Positions 7,255 through 49,956 of a stretch of DNA of 64,000 nt are shown here, piece after piece (the first letter of the stretch is position 1; every line of letters begins with the position of its first letter). Source of the stretch: a virus (Duplodnaviria; Caudoviricetes); the IMG/VR virus record IMGVR_UViG_3300037067_012889, positions 1 through 64,000 of that record; one strand, written 5' to 3'. The notes beneath the pieces were generated by a model. That model saw nothing but the letters and a program-made list of their open reading frames with translations. It ran no database searches and had not been told where the DNA came from. The translations under genes were made by a program, and so were the position numbers.

Positions 7255-8472
7255 ATGAAAAGCCCATTTCATAAAAACAACACAGGCGGAATGGTAGTAG
7301 TTACGACAGATGGTGGTGCTGGCTCATCTGGTAAAGGTTCCCTCAATTCTTGGCTAGCCGACAAATATCCATTCCACCTGGCCACAAACAACTGGTGCAC
7401 GAATGCTGGCCACTATACCGAACTCGATAATGGGACAAGGATACTCGTCCAACATATACCATCAGCATTTATCAATAAAAACACACAGCTCTACATCAAT
7501 GCTGGTGCGGCGATCGATTTGAAGACGCTTTTTAATGAAGTCTCTAACTTGGAATCTTTGGGATTTCCAATCCGTGATCGTCTTACTATCCACCCGCTCG
7601 CCAATGTAATTACCGAAGAAAATAAACAATATGAACGTGAAACTATCAAGACCGGTAGCACGTTCAAAGGATGTGGTGCTGCTATCGCAGCGAAGGCTAT
7701 GCGATTGCCTCGACAGAAACTCGCCAGAGATTACGAAGAGTTACACGAGTTCTGCACGATTGCCGATTTAACAACAGAGTTGAATCGCCGCATAGCAAAA
7801 CAAGGTATGCGAGTTCTTGTTGAAGGATCACAAGGTGTCGATCTTGATCTTAACTTCGCCGAATATCCATATTGCACATCGCGACAAACACATCCGACAC
7901 AATTGGTCGCTGATGCTGGTCTTCCTGGTAGAGCCATCACGAACGTCGTTATTAATTTGCGCACGAATCCAATACGCATCAGTAATGAATCGGCCGCTAC
8001 TGGTGAACAGTGCTACACAGGCAATTATTGGGAAGCAAGAGAGATTGGATGGGAGGAAGTCGCAAAGCAGGCCGGATATGATAATTTCGATGAATTTGTC
8101 GAAGAGTACAGATATGCAATGATGACATCTGTCACCAAAAAAGTTAGACGAATCTTCGAATTCCCGACTGAGAGAGCCAAATATGTTAATGCTCTTGCTG
8201 GCGGTCTTCTCGAAGAAGGCAATGTTCTTTATAGCCTCAATTTCATCAATTTTGTCGATAGAACCGTCAAAGGCAAGACGACATACGAAGAGGTCTTCAC
8301 GCCCAAGGTCATTAATTGGTTGCGAATGCATCTGCAACCGGTGCTAGAAAACAATGGCAGGTATGTTGATCGTGTGAACGAAAGCTGTGGTGATTCGTCG
8401 GACATGTCGCAATTCTTCGGATTACACTGGGTCAGAACCGGACCGAAGCACAGCCAAATAGTCGAGCTATGA
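7255..8472 (+). CDS. purZ: N6-succino-2-amino-2'-deoxyadenylate synthase (PurZ)-like; adenylosuccinate synthetase family
   Basis: DGGAGSSGKG (Ser at the PurA catalytic Asp), NAGH, GSTFKGCG, VEGSQG, YPYCTSR, TSVTKKVRRIF, LNFINF (instead of PurA TKLD). Confidence 0.8.
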   Translation: MKSPFHKNNTGGMVVVTTDGGAGSSGKGSLNSWLADKYPFHLATNNWCTNAGHYTELDNGTRILVQHIPSAFINKNTQLYINAGAAIDLKTLFNEVSNLESLGFPIRDRLTIHPLANVITEENKQYERETIKTGSTFKGCGAAIAAKAMRLPRQKLARDYEELHEFCTIADLTTELNRRIAKQGMRVLVEGSQGVDLDLNFAEYPYCTSRQTHPTQLVADAGLPGRAITNVVINLRTNPIRISNESAATGEQCYTGNYWEAREIGWEEVAKQAGYDNFDEFVEEYRYAMMTSVTKKVRRIFEFPTERAKYVNALAGGLLEEGNVLYSLNFINFVDRTVKGKTTYEEVFTPKVINWLRMHLQPVLENNGRYVDRVNESCGDSSDMSQFFGLHWVRTGPKHSQIVEL

Positions 8473-36732: not shown

Positions 36733-37115
36733 GTTTTCCGCCACGTTTCCTACATAGTCACGATCATCTTCAACAAAATCCGGATCATGAGCACGTTGTA
36801 GTTGATCGCGAAGATTGGATTGAAGCACGGAAAGCTTTAGGGCTTCCATCGCAATTAACTGAGGAAGATTGGAACGAATACGATTTTTGCGTCTTCTTAA
36901 TTGATGGGACAGTCATTAATCAAGAGATTACAGATGCATTGTTTGTGGCTGGGTGCGACGATGGAACAATCGCCACTTCAGGCACTCGTGCCTGGATCAG
37001 ATTCACAAGGAAAGCCGAGTCGCTCAGAGCTGCTATCAAATCGGCAGTCCACGATATAGAGAAAGCCAAATGTGTCGTTGTAGCCCATGTTGAAATTGAG
37101 ACTAATACATTATGA
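36729..37115 (+). CDS. conserved hypothetical protein (AGCDD motif)
   Basis: LFVAGCDDGT...FTRKAESL..AI.SA..D. Confidence 0.65.
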   Translation: MSFPPRFLHSHDHLQQNPDHEHVVVDREDWIEARKALGLPSQLTEEDWNEYDFCVFLIDGTVINQEITDALFVAGCDDGTIATSGTRAWIRFTRKAESLRAAIKSAVHDIEKAKCVVVAHVEIETNTL

Positions 37116-37729
37116 TCTACTTCACTTCCGACATGCACATACGACACGGAAACGTGTTAAAGCATATGCCGCTCAGGGCCGCTGCTTTCGGCAACATAGA
37201 TACTATGGGCGAGCACTTTATCGATGAGTGCAATCGCGTCGTGAAGCCGAATGATGAATTACGTATACTTGGTGATTGGATTTGGGGTGCCAGTTGGTAT
37301 GGACATTACCGTGCGAAGTTCAAGGTACGCAAAATTCATGTAGTAGGTGGCAATCATGATTATCGATCTATTTCAAAGTATGTCTCGTCGTACAAAGAGA
37401 TCGATTACACTAAAATCGATGGCATCAGGTTTCACTTATCACATTATCCGATATTCTCTTGGCGTGGCCGTGAAAGGCCGAAGTCGATACATCTATATGG
37501 ACATTCTCACGGCAGGAGCGAAGCATTCTTGAACGAGCATTTTCCAGGAAGAAGAGCAATGGATATCGGAATAGATAACGCATTCACACTGCTTGGAGAA
37601 TGGCGACCATTTTCGCTCGATGAAATATTATCTATATTAAAGATCACCCGATGCCCAATTTGTAATAAAATCGATCCGAGGCACGATAAAACGTGCCCAA
37701 ATTTTGTCAGTATACAGCGTGGTATTTAA
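37112..37729 (+). CDS. calcineurin-like metallophosphoesterase
   Basis: SDMH, LGD, GNHD, SHYP, GHSH. Confidence 0.9.
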   Translation: MIYFTSDMHIRHGNVLKHMPLRAAAFGNIDTMGEHFIDECNRVVKPNDELRILGDWIWGASWYGHYRAKFKVRKIHVVGGNHDYRSISKYVSSYKEIDYTKIDGIRFHLSHYPIFSWRGRERPKSIHLYGHSHGRSEAFLNEHFPGRRAMDIGIDNAFTLLGEWRPFSLDEILSILKITRCPICNKIDPRHDKTCPNFVSIQRGI

Positions 37730-41503: not shown

Positions 41504-42388
41504 ATGAGCATAACAGTATCGATAATCGGCAGGAATGAAGAAGACAATATCAGTCGTTGTATCAAATCTGTATTGCCTATTGCCGATTTAGTTGTCTATG
41601 CCGACACTGGCAGCACAGATTCTACTGTAGGAATTGTAGAGTCTTTAGCTAATAAAACACATAAAATTACGATACGCCATATTACATTCGACGATTTCGC
41701 ACAAGCACGTAATGAAGCGAAGAAAGGCGTTCCTGGCGACTGGATCCTACAAATCGATGCCGACGAAACGCTAAACAATGCATCAAAATTGCATACACTT
41801 TGTGGGCCAGATGAGTTCAAAGAGGCATACCTATTTTCACAAGAGCATCTGATACTCGGCGGCAATAAGACGTCTGTCGTAATGCGCCTATTCAAAAACC
41901 GCGAGCATTATCAATATGTCGGCTGCATTCACGAGATGCCAGAAAACATCCAGGTCACTGGACCAGATAAAGCCATTGAGCCTTTTGCATTCATTCAAGG
42001 TATCTATTTTGCTCATTATGGCTGCGTCGATGAACAGTTACGACGCGCGAAAGTCTCAAATCGCAATCTCGAACTACTTATTAAAGATCTGCGTGTAAAT
42101 CCAGATAGATCATATAATAAGTATCTCATGATTCGAGATTACCTCAACATCTATAAATGGCGAACAGCGGCAAATGGCTTTCGATGCACATACAATTCAA
42201 TTGAACATCAACTACTTTGTGCAATTATCAGAGATCACGACCAATACAAGGATATCGTATTACCACGATATCAAGAGCTAGCTAGTGAAGTGTGTGCTAC
42301 GGCATATTCCCTATTAGCACAACAGGAAATGCAACTTATCGAGACTGATCTGCAACCGACTGCTCTATTATCTTTAGGATTGTCGTAA
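41504..42388 (+). CDS. glycosyltransferase family 2
   Basis: RNEE, DTGSTD, DFAQARN, IDADE, IHE, HYG. Confidence 0.9.
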   Translation: MSITVSIIGRNEEDNISRCIKSVLPIADLVVYADTGSTDSTVGIVESLANKTHKITIRHITFDDFAQARNEAKKGVPGDWILQIDADETLNNASKLHTLCGPDEFKEAYLFSQEHLILGGNKTSVVMRLFKNREHYQYVGCIHEMPENIQVTGPDKAIEPFAFIQGIYFAHYGCVDEQLRRAKVSNRNLELLIKDLRVNPDRSYNKYLMIRDYLNIYKWRTAANGFRCTYNSIEHQLLCAIIRDHDQYKDIVLPRYQELASEVCATAYSLLAQQEMQLIETDLQPTALLSLGLS

Positions 42389-43787: not shown

Positions 43788-44152
43788 AAATCACAGAAAA
43801 GAATTTGCCAATTGCTCTTGCTTTATATCTGACACGCAGCGACGTAGAACAACACCTATGGAATAAGACAGCGACTTGGCGATTCATTAGTGGTGTCGAT
43901 AAACGACATCCACAACGAACAGCCGTCTGCACCTTTGCCGATGCCGTAGCAGCGTTCTTACTCAATGAAATCGGTGATTACTTCGGCGATTGGGTACCTT
44001 GTTCGATGGAACAAATCCCAAATTGCAATAACGGAAGAATAGTTGAAGTATTCGACACGGACATCAAACACCGAACCATCAATATCCTATCTAAGGAAGA
44101 ACTAGACATAATGGTCGCGGATGGGTTCGATCCCATCGGCTATAAGAAATAA
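43784..44152 (+). CDS. hypothetical protein
   Basis: ATGA-coupled ORF. Confidence 0.6.
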   Translation: MKITEKNLPIALALYLTRSDVEQHLWNKTATWRFISGVDKRHPQRTAVCTFADAVAAFLLNEIGDYFGDWVPCSMEQIPNCNNGRIVEVFDTDIKHRTINILSKEELDIMVADGFDPIGYKK

Positions 44153-44153
44153 C

Positions 44154-45158
44154 ATGAATTTAGATCAACTAAAAGCAATATTGGCGTCTCCAAAAACAGC
44201 TATGGACTTGTTTGGCGATGACCCAGACAAGACTTATCGTGAATGGGCTTTGATTTGCCATCCGGACCGTTTTGTAACTAGCACAGATGATGTAAAGGAA
44301 TACGCCAAAAATGTTTTCACGCTGCTTGAAAAACGCCGTGAAGAATTAAAGACGCCACCTACGATTTGGAAGTCCCCGGATTTCGAATATCATCTTGGAC
44401 CACAGATCGGAAGCGGCGAAGTTTCAAAGGTCTATCTCGCCACACAGAAGAAAGGCGGCGACTCAAAGCCGGTCGTTCTTAAAGTCGCTCACGTTAAAGA
44501 GGCGAACGAATACATCGAGAAAGAGGCCAAGATTCTCGCCGATATACGTGTTCAAGCCGGTGATCGGAAATATAGCGAATATGTGGCCAAACCGATCGAG
44601 CTTTTCACGCACGACGAGCTTCGAATTGCTGTCCAGCAGCACTATGATGGATACTACACCGTCAACGAGTACATGACGAAATATCCAAATGGCGTGGGCG
44701 GCAGGCATGTTGCGTGGATGTTCAATCGGACACTCACAATTCTCGGTTTCATACACGCTATCAATTACATGCATTGTGCCCCGATGCCGATGCATTTGCT
44801 GTTCAACAATGTCAATCGTGGCTGCAAGTTGATAAGTTGGGCTAGCTGCTGTCGTATGGAGCAGAAGCTTTCAGTCGTGCCGTTGTCCCACAAAACATGG
44901 TATCCGAAGCTGGAAATCACAAAACAGTACCCAGCAACACCAAGCCTTGATATCTATTTGGCGTCGAAAACGATGTTGGAAATGTGCAAACAACACAAGC
45001 CGGGCGAAGTTCCGTCGAAATTGATTGTGTTTTTGGAATCGTGCGTTAATCCGAAGCCACTACAAAGACCACAAGACGCTTGGAAATTATTAGACGAATG
45101 GAAACATCTGCTTAAGTTGGTCTATGGACCTCCACGATATGACGCTTTACCAATGTAA
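44154..45158 (+). CDS. J-domain (HPD) fused to protein-kinase-fold domain, probable pseudokinase
   Basis: YREWALICHPDRF; IGSGEVSKVY, VVLK, EKEAKIL; catalytic loop HCAPMPMH and ISW in place of HRD/DFG; DIY. Confidence 0.85.
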   Translation: MNLDQLKAILASPKTAMDLFGDDPDKTYREWALICHPDRFVTSTDDVKEYAKNVFTLLEKRREELKTPPTIWKSPDFEYHLGPQIGSGEVSKVYLATQKKGGDSKPVVLKVAHVKEANEYIEKEAKILADIRVQAGDRKYSEYVAKPIELFTHDELRIAVQQHYDGYYTVNEYMTKYPNGVGGRHVAWMFNRTLTILGFIHAINYMHCAPMPMHLLFNNVNRGCKLISWASCCRMEQKLSVVPLSHKTWYPKLEITKQYPATPSLDIYLASKTMLEMCKQHKPGEVPSKLIVFLESCVNPKPLQRPQDAWKLLDEWKHLLKLVYGPPRYDALPM

Positions 45159-45194
45159 CTAATCCGTGTTCCCCTAACCTATGGAGTGATTACT

Positions 45195-46175
45195 ATGGGT
45201 GGTACTAGATGGTCTGACGACCATTACAAAGATCGTGTTACAATGCGGGCCGCAACCGGCAAGCCTACTTTCGCCTATGATAGTGCGATGAGATCGGCAC
45301 CAGTCAGTGCCCGCAAAGTCCACGACAGCCTCAACCCGTTCGGCGTGAAATTCCGCGAAAGCCGCGACAGCGATGCCCATCCGACAAGCTTGGCTATCGG
45401 CGTTCTCTTCGACGAAACCGGCTCCATGGCACGAGTTCCGGTACAGTTCCAGACCGCATTGCCACAATTGATGGGTCTCCTGATGCGGAAGGGTGTCGTC
45501 GAGCATCCGCAAATCTTGATTGGTGCCTTCGGAGACGCCAGTGGTGGCGGCGAGCGTGCTCCGCTGCAAGTCGGTCAATTCGAATCCGGCATCGAGATCG
45601 AAGACTGCTTGACCAACATCTATCTGGAAGGCCAGGGCGGCGGTCAGAACACCGAGAGCTACGAGTTGGCTATGTACTTCATGGCTCGACATACGGCACT
45701 CGACTGCTTCGAGAAGCGGAACAAGAAGGGCTACCTCTTCTTGACCGGCGACGAGTTGTATTATCCGCAGGTGAAGGCCGAAGAAGTCAAGCGGCTTATC
45801 GGTGACACCCTGCAGGAGAACATCCCCGTCGAGACGATTATGGAAGAATTGCAGACGATGTATGACGTCTACTTCCTGATTCCACGTGGCACCAGCCATT
45901 ATGACGCGCCGTGGCTGCTGGAAGGCTGGCAGAAGCTTCTCGGGCAGCAAGTCTTGCGACTCGACGACCCCGATGCCATCAGCGAAGTCGTCGCGAGCAC
46001 GATCAGCCTCGCCGAGGGCTATGATCTCGATTCGGTTGGCCGTGGCCTTGATGAAGCCGGTGTTTCCAAGGACCGGCGTGCCTCAATCACCAAGGCCCTC
46101 GTGCCCTTGGCTGATTCGGCTGGTCGTAAGATCGTTAAAGGTTCCGTTTCTGGAACCGGGTTGGCGAAGATCTGA
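45195..46175 (+). CDS. vWA (MIDAS) domain protein
   Basis: FDETGSM, GQFE, GGGQ..ESY, FLTGDE; visibly GC-rich codon usage. Confidence 0.9.
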   Translation: MGGTRWSDDHYKDRVTMRAATGKPTFAYDSAMRSAPVSARKVHDSLNPFGVKFRESRDSDAHPTSLAIGVLFDETGSMARVPVQFQTALPQLMGLLMRKGVVEHPQILIGAFGDASGGGERAPLQVGQFESGIEIEDCLTNIYLEGQGGGQNTESYELAMYFMARHTALDCFEKRNKKGYLFLTGDELYYPQVKAEEVKRLIGDTLQENIPVETIMEELQTMYDVYFLIPRGTSHYDAPWLLEGWQKLLGQQVLRLDDPDAISEVVASTISLAEGYDLDSVGRGLDEAGVSKDRRASITKALVPLADSAGRKIVKGSVSGTGLAKI

Positions 46176-46252: not shown

Positions 46253-47458
46253 GTGAGACGTGCTGTAATAACTGTCGGTCTTGGGTTTGGTGATGAAGCC
46301 AAGGGGGCCACATGTGATTATTTATGCAGAAGGCTTAAAGCCGATCTTGTCGTTCGCTATTGTGGTGGGTGCCAGGCTGCACACAATGTAGTATTGCCGG
46401 ATGGAACACACCACACTTTTAGCCAATTTGGTTCTGGAACTTTTTCTGGTGTCTCGACCTATCTAGGACCAGATGTGATTATTTCACCATTGGCAATGGT
46501 GAATGAAGCTAATCATCTAATTGACATCGGACTACGGAATCCGTGGGCCAGTTTGCGTGTTGATGAGCGATGCCTAATAGCAACACCATATCATCAATCT
46601 CTAAACAGATTCAGAGAACGAAATAGAGGTAATGAGTGTCACGGCTCTTGCGGTATGGGAGTTGGCGCGACACGAGAGCATGCTATATATTATAATGACG
46701 ATGCACTTAGAGTACAAGACTTAGCATCTTATAGTAATACTATAACAAAACTGAGAAAAATACAACAATGGGTCCATGAATCTGCAGGGCATCCAATAAC
46801 AGATCATATGGATTCATATAGCGTTTATGATCGTCTACATGATGCATCTTCTAAAATGCCTATCGTCAGAGAGATGCCAAGATTCAAAATGGCTATATTC
46901 GAGGGTGCTCAAGGTATTCTTCTTGACGAAAATCATGGTTGCCATCCCTATACTACTTGGTCAACAGTCACGCTAAAACACGCCATCGAATTGCTTCGAA
47001 ATACAGACATAGAAGTTAATGTTATGGGGTGTATTAGATCGTACATGACGCGGCATGGAGCTGGTCCGCTATCACTAGAGAACCCAAATTTGATCGGTGC
47101 CGCCGACGCTAGTAATCCGCCAAATGAATGGCAAGGACGTATGCGATATGCTCCGCTTGACTTAAATATTTTAAGTCACTCGAAAGAAGTTTTAGGTGGA
47201 AAGCTTCATAATGTTTCATTGAGTTGTTTAGATCATATCGACGGTTCAATTCCTGTAGTTGATAAAGATATCGAGCATGTAAGCTCAGTAGAGCTTATTA
47301 AAAAAATTGAAAGAGTATTAGCACCGGTCGCTATTACGGGGCGTGGGCCATGTTATACCGATCGCTGCATGGGGAGCTTGTCGTGGCATTCTTTAGAAGA
47401 AACAATCGAGGTGAATGATGGCCAAAGATTTACGGTCTGCAATAGCACAAGCACGTGA
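46253..47458 (+). CDS. adenylosuccinate synthetase-like paralogue (divergent PurA)
   Basis: GFGDEAKG, VRY.GG.QAAH, HGSCGMG, FEGAQG, HPYTT.S, Y.TRHGAGP, SCLD; aspartate loop reads NEWQGRMR. Confidence 0.9.
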   Translation: MRRAVITVGLGFGDEAKGATCDYLCRRLKADLVVRYCGGCQAAHNVVLPDGTHHTFSQFGSGTFSGVSTYLGPDVIISPLAMVNEANHLIDIGLRNPWASLRVDERCLIATPYHQSLNRFRERNRGNECHGSCGMGVGATREHAIYYNDDALRVQDLASYSNTITKLRKIQQWVHESAGHPITDHMDSYSVYDRLHDASSKMPIVREMPRFKMAIFEGAQGILLDENHGCHPYTTWSTVTLKHAIELLRNTDIEVNVMGCIRSYMTRHGAGPLSLENPNLIGAADASNPPNEWQGRMRYAPLDLNILSHSKEVLGGKLHNVSLSCLDHIDGSIPVVDKDIEHVSSVELIKKIERVLAPVAITGRGPCYTDRCMGSLSWHSLEETIEVNDGQRFTVCNSTST

Positions 47459-47822: not shown

Positions 47823-48126
47823 ATGAGACTTCGAACAGCCATCAAAATTCAGAGGATGTATGAAGAACCCATAACTAAATGGCCGATTACGATATAAGGG
47901 TATTAGATGGCCATATAACATAAAGCAATATACAAAATCTGCTACTATTTGCAAGCGGCATCTGATGGATAGTAGGGTCCCATATATTCCATCAAATCGC
48001 GAACTTGAAGAACGAGCCGAAATACAAATATGTTTATTAGCAGACCTGCTTATCGATGAACCAGAATGCGAAGAATTTAAAGAACAGGCATTGCTGGAAC
48101 TTGAACGCGGCAGAATTAAAAAATGA
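47823..48126 (+). pseudogene. frameshifted hypothetical gene
   Basis: Frame stops at 47897; the +1 frame is open from about 47875 to 48126. Confidence 0.45.
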
Positions 48127-48160
48127 TGAGATTCGTGCTAACATAACATGGAGGACAATT

Positions 48161-48583
48161 ATGCTATTAGAACAAGCTTTTCCAAAAGGCACCAGGGGCG
48201 CAGAGCGTGGGAAATATTTTCCGCCAAAAGGAACTCTCGGCGATGATTTTTATGCCCTAAAGGACAGTGGGTGTATTCAGGCTGAGAATGATTCGCTCAA
48301 AAGCATGTTCAGTGTGGTGATGAGCATGACCCTGCGCAATCCGTGCAACGGCTGCCCAGTCTGGGATAGGAAAGGACCAGGATGCGTAGCTTTTCAGAAG
48401 CACCACTCAGCCTATCTTCATTGGAAGAAAGAGCATGATGCTGAAATCGCCTACAACACGACTCCCCAAAATGCCCCGAGTGGACACAAGTTCGAAGGCA
48501 TGAATATGAAGAAAATCGCTAGCGAGCTTGGTATTAGCCTAGGAGAAGCACGACGCCGCAAATCGGCGGGCACATTGTTCTAA
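48161..48583 (+). CDS. Cys-motif protein with C-terminal HTH
   Basis: GGAGG SD; PCNGCP; MKKIASELGISLGEARRRK. Confidence 0.65.
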   Translation: MLLEQAFPKGTRGAERGKYFPPKGTLGDDFYALKDSGCIQAENDSLKSMFSVVMSMTLRNPCNGCPVWDRKGPGCVAFQKHHSAYLHWKKEHDAEIAYNTTPQNAPSGHKFEGMNMKKIASELGISLGEARRRKSAGTLF

Positions 48584-49164: not shown

Positions 49165-49956
49165 TCAAGAGAGACCACAAATCGAAAGCATAACCTCGTT
49201 TAATTCGCTCTTCGATATCGATCTCTGACCAACAGTATTGTTGTGGTCCCATTTAAAACGATTCAATCCAGCTATAACTGAATCGATGCGTTTCTCATCT
49301 TCTAACTTTATATAATAGTGTGCAGTCGACGCCACTGACAATTCTTTACTTGCCTTGCCCGCATACATACCTACTCTTCTTACACAGAAATGTGCTTCAT
49401 TTCTCCTCACATAGGAGAATCCGACCGGTGCGGCACGATGTTGTTTTGGTCTGGGAACATTTTTATTTTCCCAGATTTGAAACACTACGGGCACTTCTTG
49501 TACTTTTCCATCTAATGTAGCGTTCTTTAACGGAACGTCTATCTGTTTCACCAGATGGTAATTCTTAGGCACTCTCGCCTGTATGCTGTCCTTCTTATAT
49601 GACAATGGCAAGATGAATGCGATAGTATCAGCTATTTCAGCACATTTCTTGATAAATGCGAGAGCTAATGATCCATTTGTACCAAAAGGTGGATTACCTA
49701 TACATAATATGTCTTTGCGATCTACTGGTCCGACGTAGCCTAGTCGTAAGAAGTTATATTTTACTATCGACGAATGTTTTGGGTCTATGTCGAAGGCAAC
49801 ACATCCTGGTATTTGGCAAGAAAATGAGCCATCTCCAGCCGATGGCTCAATCACTAATTTAAATCTGGATGTATCGACTTCATCGATTAACTTCTTTGCT
49901 ATATCTGGAATAGTAAAAAATGTACATTGGCTGCTTTTTCTTATATGAATTCCCAT
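49165..49956 (-). CDS. DNA amino-methyltransferase (N6-adenine type, NPPF)
   Basis: FFT, IEPSAGDGSF (motif I), IGNPPFG (motif IV), AFILP. Confidence 0.9.
   Translation of the reverse strand: MGIHIRKSSQCTFFTIPDIAKKLIDEVDTSRFKLVIEPSAGDGSFSCQIPGCVAFDIDPKHSSIVKYNFLRLGYVGPVDRKDILCIGNPPFGTNGSLALAFIKKCAEIADTIAFILPLSYKKDSIQARVPKNYHLVKQIDVPLKNATLDGKVQEVPVVFQIWENKNVPRPKQHRAAPVGFSYVRRNEAHFCVRRVGMYAGKASKELSVASTAHYYIKLEDEKRIDSVIAGLNRFKWDHNNTVGQRSISKSELNEVMLSICGLS

Follow-up and report, generated by a model that had tools for sequence, protein, structure and literature searches.

What does a phage do with two genes of the adenylosuccinate synthetase family, and in particular with one whose substrate pocket appears to have been rebuilt? 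The question is raised by IMG/VR record IMGVR_UViG_3300037067_012889, a viral genome of 363,885 bp that is complete by CheckV and can therefore be assigned to a jumbo phage. Its first 64 kb, the stretch of DNA analyzed here and called the window below, contain a pair of genes that match PF00709 (adenylosuccinate synthetase), one at 7255-8472 and the other at 46253-47458. Our main subject is the second, an open reading frame (ORF) on the plus strand that runs from a GTG start to a TGA stop, encodes a PurA-like ligase of 401 aa and has an AAGGA Shine-Dalgarno-like element 8-9 nt 5' of its start. Judging from sequence, this gene represents a new functional variant of the PurA superfamily within an uncharacterized and widespread phage module, and its product is most likely a catalytically competent but neofunctionalized member of the adenylosuccinate synthetase superfamily.

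Membership of that superfamily is apparent from both sequence and predicted fold. The protein matches PF00709 over residues 7-331 (Pfam, E 2.5e-48) and phrog_1211 (2e-63), among solved structures it matches chains of E. coli PurA best (E about 1e-27), and it is ~30% identical to PurA (EC 6.3.4.4; structures 1ADE, 1CG0-1CG4 and 1KJX) over its first 280 residues. An AlphaFold2 model built with 99 relatives (predicted local distance difference test score, pLDDT, 88; predicted template modelling score, pTM, 0.89) superposes in Foldseek on the long-form PurA of bacteria, fungi, plants and mammals, including those of E. coli and mouse, with template modelling (TM) scores of 0.75-0.80, and archaeal PurA and PurZ structures fit the model less well (TM about 0.6). 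The protein falls below the cut-offs of both NCBIfam PurA equivalog models, with 114.8 bits for TIGR00184 (cut-off 395) and 132.9 bits for NF002223 (cut-off 402), and it reaches 39.1 bits against a cut-off of 300 for the PurZ model NF038379.

Which parts of the active site, then, have been kept and which have been changed? Two alignments address this, one of the target with E. coli PurA (locus L004), 120 database relatives and gp253 of mycobacteriophage Rizal, and the other of 74 distinct viral-contig relatives against 65 sequences extracted as canonical purA; residue numbers of canonical positions follow the E. coli PurA literature. As read from these alignments, the activating half of the active site is kept throughout the clade and the accepting half is rebuilt. 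The P-loop GLGFGDEAKG (residues 9-18; 46277-46306) carries Asp14 and Lys17, the equivalents of Asp13 and Lys16, and His41 is retained as His44 in GGCQAAHN (46364-46387), as the first-pass annotation had noted for the catalytic Asp and His. Gln224 is present as Gln220 in FEGAQGILLD (46898-46927), Thr239 as Thr235 in TTWSTVT (46952-46972), and Asp333 as Asp327 in SCLD (residues 324-327; 47222-47233). Twelve positions, namely Gly12, Asp13, Lys16, Gly17, Asp21, His41, Gln224, Thr239, Thr271, Arg272, Asp333 and Gly416, are kept from PurA and are invariant in the family.

The picture is very different where canonical PurA meets its other substrates. The loop that binds L-aspartate, GxTTGRxRR in PurA, is replaced by NPPNEWQGRMR (residues 288-298; 47114-47146), which follows TRHGAGP (residues 266-272; 47048-47068) and lacks a Thr-Thr pair. 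The strings had been quoted correctly in the first-pass annotation, including SCLD in place of TKLD, and the canonical TTGRxRR motif is indeed gone, but to call the loop lost goes too far: a different conserved motif stands in its place, and one Arg is kept. Across about 200 relatives, Thr-Thr-Gly-Arg-x-Arg-Arg has become x-[Trp/Phe/Tyr]-Gln-Gly-x-hydrophobic-Arg, within the pattern N-x-[WFY]-Q-G-x-hydrophobic-R. The two alignments place a one-residue gap in the loop differently, but in either register the Thr pair is gone and one of the three conserved Arg residues is kept. At the positions of L-aspartate recognition (Val273, Thr300/Thr301, Arg303 and Arg305), the target thus reads His, Trp-Gln and Met, with one loop Arg conserved in the family. 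The first of these changes, His268 for Val273 within TRHGAGP, had been overlooked; His stands here in 121 of 121 and 74 of 74 relatives in the two alignments.

Also absent from the earlier account is the remodelling of the pocket for the 5'-phosphate of inosine monophosphate (IMP), in which three of the four ligands are replaced and only Thr239 is kept. Asn38 has become Gln (Gln41 in the target), Thr129 has become Cys, and position 143, an Arg in PurA, is variable. The Cys belongs to HGSCGMGVG (46640-46666), which stands for canonical IGTTGRGIG and brings with it Ile126 to His, Thr128 to Ser and Arg131 to Met; the His, Ser and Cys of this stretch are invariant or nearly so in the subfamily, and position 131 is Met, Leu, His or Gln. 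Elsewhere, Thr42 is mostly Asn (Asn45 in the target), Asp231 is Trp, Tyr or Asn, and Ser240 is Trp or Arg (Trp236 in the target). Of the positions for guanine specificity, Asp333 is invariant, Lys331 is Cys or His (Cys in the target), and Ser414 is Gly in the target, which has also lost about 40 residues in its C-terminal third relative to PurA. These substitutions are invariant or nearly so in the 121 database relatives and the 74 viral-contig relatives, whereas N38, T128, T129, R143, V273, T301, R303, R305 and K331 are kept in 64 of the 65 canonical controls, the lone outlier (L038) being a mis-extracted non-PurA ORF that was left out of the tree described below. The motifs HGSCG, TRHG and [WFY]-Q-G-x-hydrophobic-R, together with the retained GDxxKG, His and Gln, serve as signatures of the subfamily, and all are found in the target.

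The roles of these residues come from work on the E. coli enzyme (Wang et al. 1995, 1997; Poland et al. 1996; Gorrell et al. 2002). Mutagenesis (Gorrell et al. 2002; Wang et al. 1995) is reported to have identified Val273, Thr300, Thr301 and Arg303 as determinants of L-aspartate recognition, and the Thr301Ala change reportedly abolishes catalysis supported by aspartate but not that supported by hydroxylamine. The phosphate of IMP is reportedly held by Asn38, Thr129 and Thr239 together with Arg143 of the other subunit, and Arg143 and Asp231 are said to lie at the dimer interface.

Could the gene nevertheless be an auxiliary metabolic gene for a normal adenylosuccinate synthetase, one that raises AMP synthesis during infection and whose aspartate loop has simply diverged? 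Several sources annotate it as 'adenylosuccinate synthase', and the PF00709 match, the PurA fold, the full set of phosphotransfer residues, the one loop Arg and Asp333 all fit such a role. Set against this, however, the protein scores about one third of the NCBIfam equivalog cut-offs, and N38, T129, R143, V273, T301, R303, R305 and K331 are all replaced, and consistently so. In addition, no PurB-type lyase gene (PF00206) was found in this phage, though the PurB of the host could serve. Together with the separate phylogenetic position and the gene linkage described next, the latter to partners for which AMP synthesis has no need, these observations make an ordinary PurA very improbable.

The target is a member of a monophyletic, mostly viral subfamily that stands apart from canonical PurA. 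By maximum likelihood, 83 members of the family group into a single clade (support 0.94, stem 1.18), separate from a canonical PurA clade of 25 sequences (support 0.985) that was sampled almost entirely from Proteobacteria, with the PurZ-type protein of the window as outgroup. The family clade takes in some sequences with bacterial labels, including one from a Gemmataceae metagenome-assembled genome and a Kitasatospora fusion protein, and some members lie on long, probably bacterial contigs, such as P0086 (918 kb) and the Kitasatospora sequence P0273. The subfamily, whose size the first-pass annotation had not considered, is large: a protein search gave 6,963 matches at E<=0.001 among 8,000 candidates scored, and all 120 relatives inspected (40-85% identical) bear the subfamily signatures. 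Among annotated phages, 236 records match, and in 201 of them, all from cluster C mycobacteriophages such as Bxz1, Rizal and Spud, the gene bears the label 'PurA-like adenylosuccinate synthetase'; carriers in culture number about 220. When IMG/VR was scanned with the family motifs, at least 430 viral contigs were recovered, and those retrieved are mostly from large phages, with contigs of up to 512 kb.

Comparison of the loci shows, as the first-pass annotation had not, that the PurA-like gene does not travel alone. In 76 of 80 viral loci it adjoins a gene for a protein with a von Willebrand factor A (vWA) domain, which lies almost always directly upstream and on the same strand; in all four remaining loci the contig ends just upstream. 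Three independent single-ORF fusions (P0271, P0274 and P0275), each with the vWA part N-terminal and the PurA-like part C-terminal, provide classical fusion evidence that the two form a physical pair. A kinase-like gene is detectable by BLAST in 54 of the 80 loci, and all-against-all clustering of the ORFs from these loci revealed no widely recurring fourth family beyond the vWA, PurA-like and kinase genes.

In the window, the vWA partner (45195-46175, plus strand) matches phrog_2971 (1e-66) and belongs to a family of 1,748 clusters at 50% identity. Its ORF opens with a GTG at 45186 (329 aa), but residue 1 of its relatives aligns to residue 4 of this ORF and a GGAG stands upstream of the ATG at 45195, so the real start is probably this ATG, giving a protein that begins MGG. 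No Pfam match was found (no VWA model at E<=0.01); its structure model (pLDDT 89.5), however, has a vWA/integrin I-domain fold (Foldseek probability 1.0), with the vWA domain of NorD among the matches. A sequence resembling the metal-ion-dependent adhesion site (MIDAS) motif, FDETGSM (DxTxS, here D-x-T-G-S; 45408-45428), has D76, G79 and S80 invariant in 32 sequences. The N-terminal tail MGGTRWS (45195-45215) is both flexible and conserved: the first ten residues of the model have a mean pLDDT of 62 and the next ten 91, and in 136 of 150 representatives the sequence opens with MG and continues as [GS]xx[WYF][SDN], while most of the 14 that do not begin with MG look N-terminally truncated or mis-started. 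About half of the representatives end in R-[LIV].

The vWA gene also differs from its surroundings in base composition, with a GC content of 0.57 and a third-position GC content (GC3) of 0.68, compared with 0.43 and 0.32 in the adjacent PurA-like gene and a GC content of 0.42 in the window. Across 76 module loci the median GC3 excess of the vWA gene is only +0.06, so the contrast is extreme in this lineage, and it accounts for a spurious ORF of some length on the antisense strand (45174-45950). An insertion of the Hint/intein type interrupts some vWA partners (for example P0156), and a number of cluster C phages, among them LolaVinca, Iota and Cane17, give two-piece tblastn matches to the vWA protein, of about 1.7 kb as against about 0.96 kb. 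An intein is likewise seen in one Paenibacillus PurA-like protein, and P0278 is grouped with these intein-type cases.

The kinase-like gene (44121-45158, plus strand, 345 aa) lies upstream of the vWA gene, matches PF00069 (1e-8) and is homologous to Rizal gp250 (1e-20). Its product begins with a J-domain signature that includes a conserved HPD motif (44256-44273), from which recruitment of the host DnaK may be predicted. The beta-3 Lys and alpha-C Glu of kinases are kept, but the HRD position reads HCA in the target (44766-44804) and HG[A/S] or HCA in all kinase-like members examined, and in the target's kinase clade the Asp of DFG is gone as well, with SW in its place (44826-44846). On its sequence, the protein is a pseudokinase or a very atypical kinase.

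The same arrangement is found in the mycobacteriophages. Bxz1 and Rizal have gp250 ('kinase'), gp251 (hypothetical) and gp253 (PurA-like) in the order of the target and with the same assignments (phrog_3043, phrog_2971 and phrog_1211), although a small extra gene, gp252, stands between the vWA and PurA-like genes in Rizal. The Rizal PurA-like protein (38% identity to the target) bears the same signature motifs, identity is 41% between the vWA proteins (E 8e-69), and comparison of the kinases gives E 1e-20; the Rizal kinase likewise has HPD and lacks the HRD Asp, but keeps a DFG-type Asp (DW) where the target's clade reads SW. A further parallel is the TerY-P triad, reportedly described by Anantharaman, Iyer and Aravind in 2012 as a TerY-type vWA protein with a Ser/Thr kinase and a PP2C phosphatase. 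There too, a vWA/MIDAS protein is genetically coupled to a protein of kinase fold; in contrast, no PP2C recurs in the loci studied here, the kinase of the module lacks the catalytic Asp, and a PurA-like ligase is the constant third partner. Our literature search found no paper characterizing the subfamily or the module of vWA, PurA-like and J-domain pseudokinase genes, PADLOC returned nothing for the PurA-like and vWA proteins and only weak kinase-family matches for the pseudokinase, and a scan for promoters and terminators around the module gave results no better than shuffled sequence.

Other carriers of the module offer hints of a recurrent link to NAD/ADP-ribose metabolism that is absent from this phage. 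A gene of the Nudix-NrtR type, an ADP-ribose-responsive family of NAD regulators, stands just upstream of the module in 11 of the 80 loci, and a NAMPT gene lies inside the module in seven; L090:4216-4989, L100:4595-5992 and their relatives belong to these two groups. In addition, the homologue from the actinomycete Kitasatospora (P0273, with 16 members) carries a NUDIX fusion, and in one relative (P0045) the fused domain is DUF6939, for which there is a weak association of the NADAR type. The phage studied here lacks DUF6939 and has a single NUDIX gene, at a distance of about 120 kb. The module probably serves host takeover or counter-defense tied to nucleotide or NAD stress, as opposed to bulk supply of AMP.

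What reaction might such an enzyme catalyze? To our knowledge, the chemistry of PurA, in which an NTP drives activation of the purine C6 carbonyl for attack by an amine, has a single known nucleophile, L-aspartate, and two known nucleotide substrates, IMP for PurA and dGMP for PurZ. Since the aspartate positions are replaced family-wide and the phosphotransfer residues are invariant, a nucleophile other than free L-aspartate would be the most economical explanation, and to this extent the different acceptor proposed in the first-pass annotation is plausible and partly supported. The reading that we favor, and hold to be somewhat more probable than all others together, is that the protein acts together with its vWA partner as a GTP-dependent ligase at purine C6 and has given up free L-aspartate as a substrate. 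GTP would phosphorylate O6 of a hypoxanthine-type nucleotide to give a 6-phosphoryl purine intermediate, and C6 would then pass to the other nucleophile; given the changed phosphate pocket, the nucleotide may not be plain IMP. The vWA protein would take part as a subunit, as a substrate carrier or as the acceptor itself, and DnaK would be connected to the system through the pseudokinase. Arg143 and Asp231, both at the dimer interface in E. coli, have been lost, which suggests that the vWA partner, instead of a second PurA subunit, completes the site.

As to the acceptor, a small amine or ammonia, which would yield AMP or an N6-substituted AMP, is a possibility that we entertain tentatively. 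It is also tempting to speculate, at somewhat longer odds, that the acceptor is the invariant glycine of the vWA partner's flexible N-terminus: once the Met had been removed, C6 might be coupled to the exposed alpha-amine to give a protein-N-linked purine nucleotide, with the J-domain pseudokinase bringing in the host DnaK. Such a coupling, doubtful as we consider it, would if true be a protein-nucleotide conjugation of a kind not described so far. The rest of our expectation, and the largest share of it, goes to some other acceptor.

Several points weigh against a ligase that has abandoned free L-aspartate. Confidence in the structure model is lowest in the two substrate loops (pLDDT 56-77), and the roles in aspartate recognition of Val273, Thr300, Thr301 and Arg303 rest on the reported mutagenesis of the E. 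coli enzyme and the conservation control. One loop Arg and Thr239 are kept, so that by sequence some binding of aspartate or IMP may persist. Finally, neither an NrtR_WHD nor a NAMPT gene was found in this phage, in which the NAD link is therefore not visible.

A further consideration is whether the PurA-like protein needs a partner at all. The first-pass annotation had, in effect, pictured a stand-alone enzyme that couples IMP (or dIMP or GMP) to some other free amine, yielding a new N6-substituted purine for the nucleotide pool or for DNA. A remodelled aspartate pocket beside an intact catalytic core is what such an enzyme would display, and a PurZ-type base-modifying enzyme is encoded in the same genome. 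This proposal, however, leaves the obligate vWA partner, the fusions and the J-domain pseudokinase unexplained; no downstream tailoring, kinase or polymerase genes recur with the module; and retention of the Asp13 equivalent would argue against 2-amino-purine substrates of the PurZ type. The module is, moreover, independent of PurZ in all 50 other carriers, as set out below, and we regard a stand-alone enzyme as unlikely. PurA homologues of the ToyG type, from 7-deazapurine antibiotic pathways, were also considered and set aside, as these pair with a lyase and a reductase, neither of which recurs in the module loci.

The other PurA-family gene of the window (7255-8472, plus strand) lies outside the module and is of the PurZ/archaeal type. 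It is closest to archaeal PurA and to the PurZ structures 6FM1 (phiVC8), 7ODX (S-2L) and 7VF6 (PurZ0), and it reads GSSGKG for GDEGKG, with Ser at the position of Asp13, so that at the level of sequence this genome does hold two PurA-family genes altered in different ways, as had been proposed. PurZ, the N6-succino-2-amino-2'-deoxyadenylate synthase, is likewise a phage-borne and repurposed member of the PurA superfamily, but it is of the short archaeal type, has Ser in place of Asp13 and still uses aspartate, whereas the target is of the long form and keeps the Asp. The three closest phage relatives all keep both genes, with the 37-40 kb spacing seen in the target, and these relatives served as the positive control for a search at E<=1e-10 that found a PurZ-type gene in none of 50 other module-bearing viral records, 27 of which have a completeness of 90% or more. 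It follows that the pairing is confined to this lineage and that the two enzymes are not a functional pair; that the module forms part of a Z-base (Z-DNA) pathway was rejected on the same grounds. Within the lineage (L005, L087 and L088), identities are 62-65% for the PurA-like protein, 85-95% for the vWA protein, 62-89% for the pseudokinase and 87-92% for the distant PurZ-type protein. Either the ligase is evolving much faster, or one gene of the module has been swapped by recombination.

Perhaps, then, the PurA-like protein no longer ligates anything, and its scaffold acts as a nucleotide sensor or GTPase-like subunit that binds GTP and an inosine-type nucleotide and switches an assembly of vWA protein, pseudokinase and DnaK. 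PurA belongs to the SIMIBI class of P-loop proteins, which includes regulatory GTPases, the model gives distant matches to the fold of signal recognition particle (SRP) GTPases, and a pseudokinase and an adaptor-type vWA domain would be fitting partners. Yet the residues that serve chemistry as opposed to binding, namely the Asp acting as general base, the His acting as general acid, and Gln224, are invariant in about 200 sequences, and the new pocket residues are invariant too, as expected for a defined substrate. We therefore consider a non-ligating role distinctly unlikely, and return to the partnered C6 ligase as the preferred reading.

If the reaction of this predicted ligase were worked out, it could define a third branch of the PurA family and give a function to a module that hundreds of large phages carry, among them over 200 mycobacteriophages that have been sequenced and are easy to manipulate. 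Such work might also reveal a new nucleotide-based step in the conflict between phage and host. For annotation, 'adenylosuccinate synthase' labels on such phage genes are probably wrong.

The wider neighborhood of the module includes genes for a phosphoesterase of the calcineurin type, a glycosyltransferase of family 2 and a small protein that weakly matches sigma-70 region 4 (37112-37729, 41504-42388 and 48056-48583), none of which recurs with the module in other loci. Downstream, on the minus strand, an ORF of 263 aa without a Pfam match (49165-49956) contains EPSAGDGSF and, after it, GNPPFG, two strings similar to motifs I and IV of DNA methyltransferases that act on N6 of adenine (or N4 of cytosine), a curious presence in a phage that may replace adenine by means of its PurZ-type enzyme.

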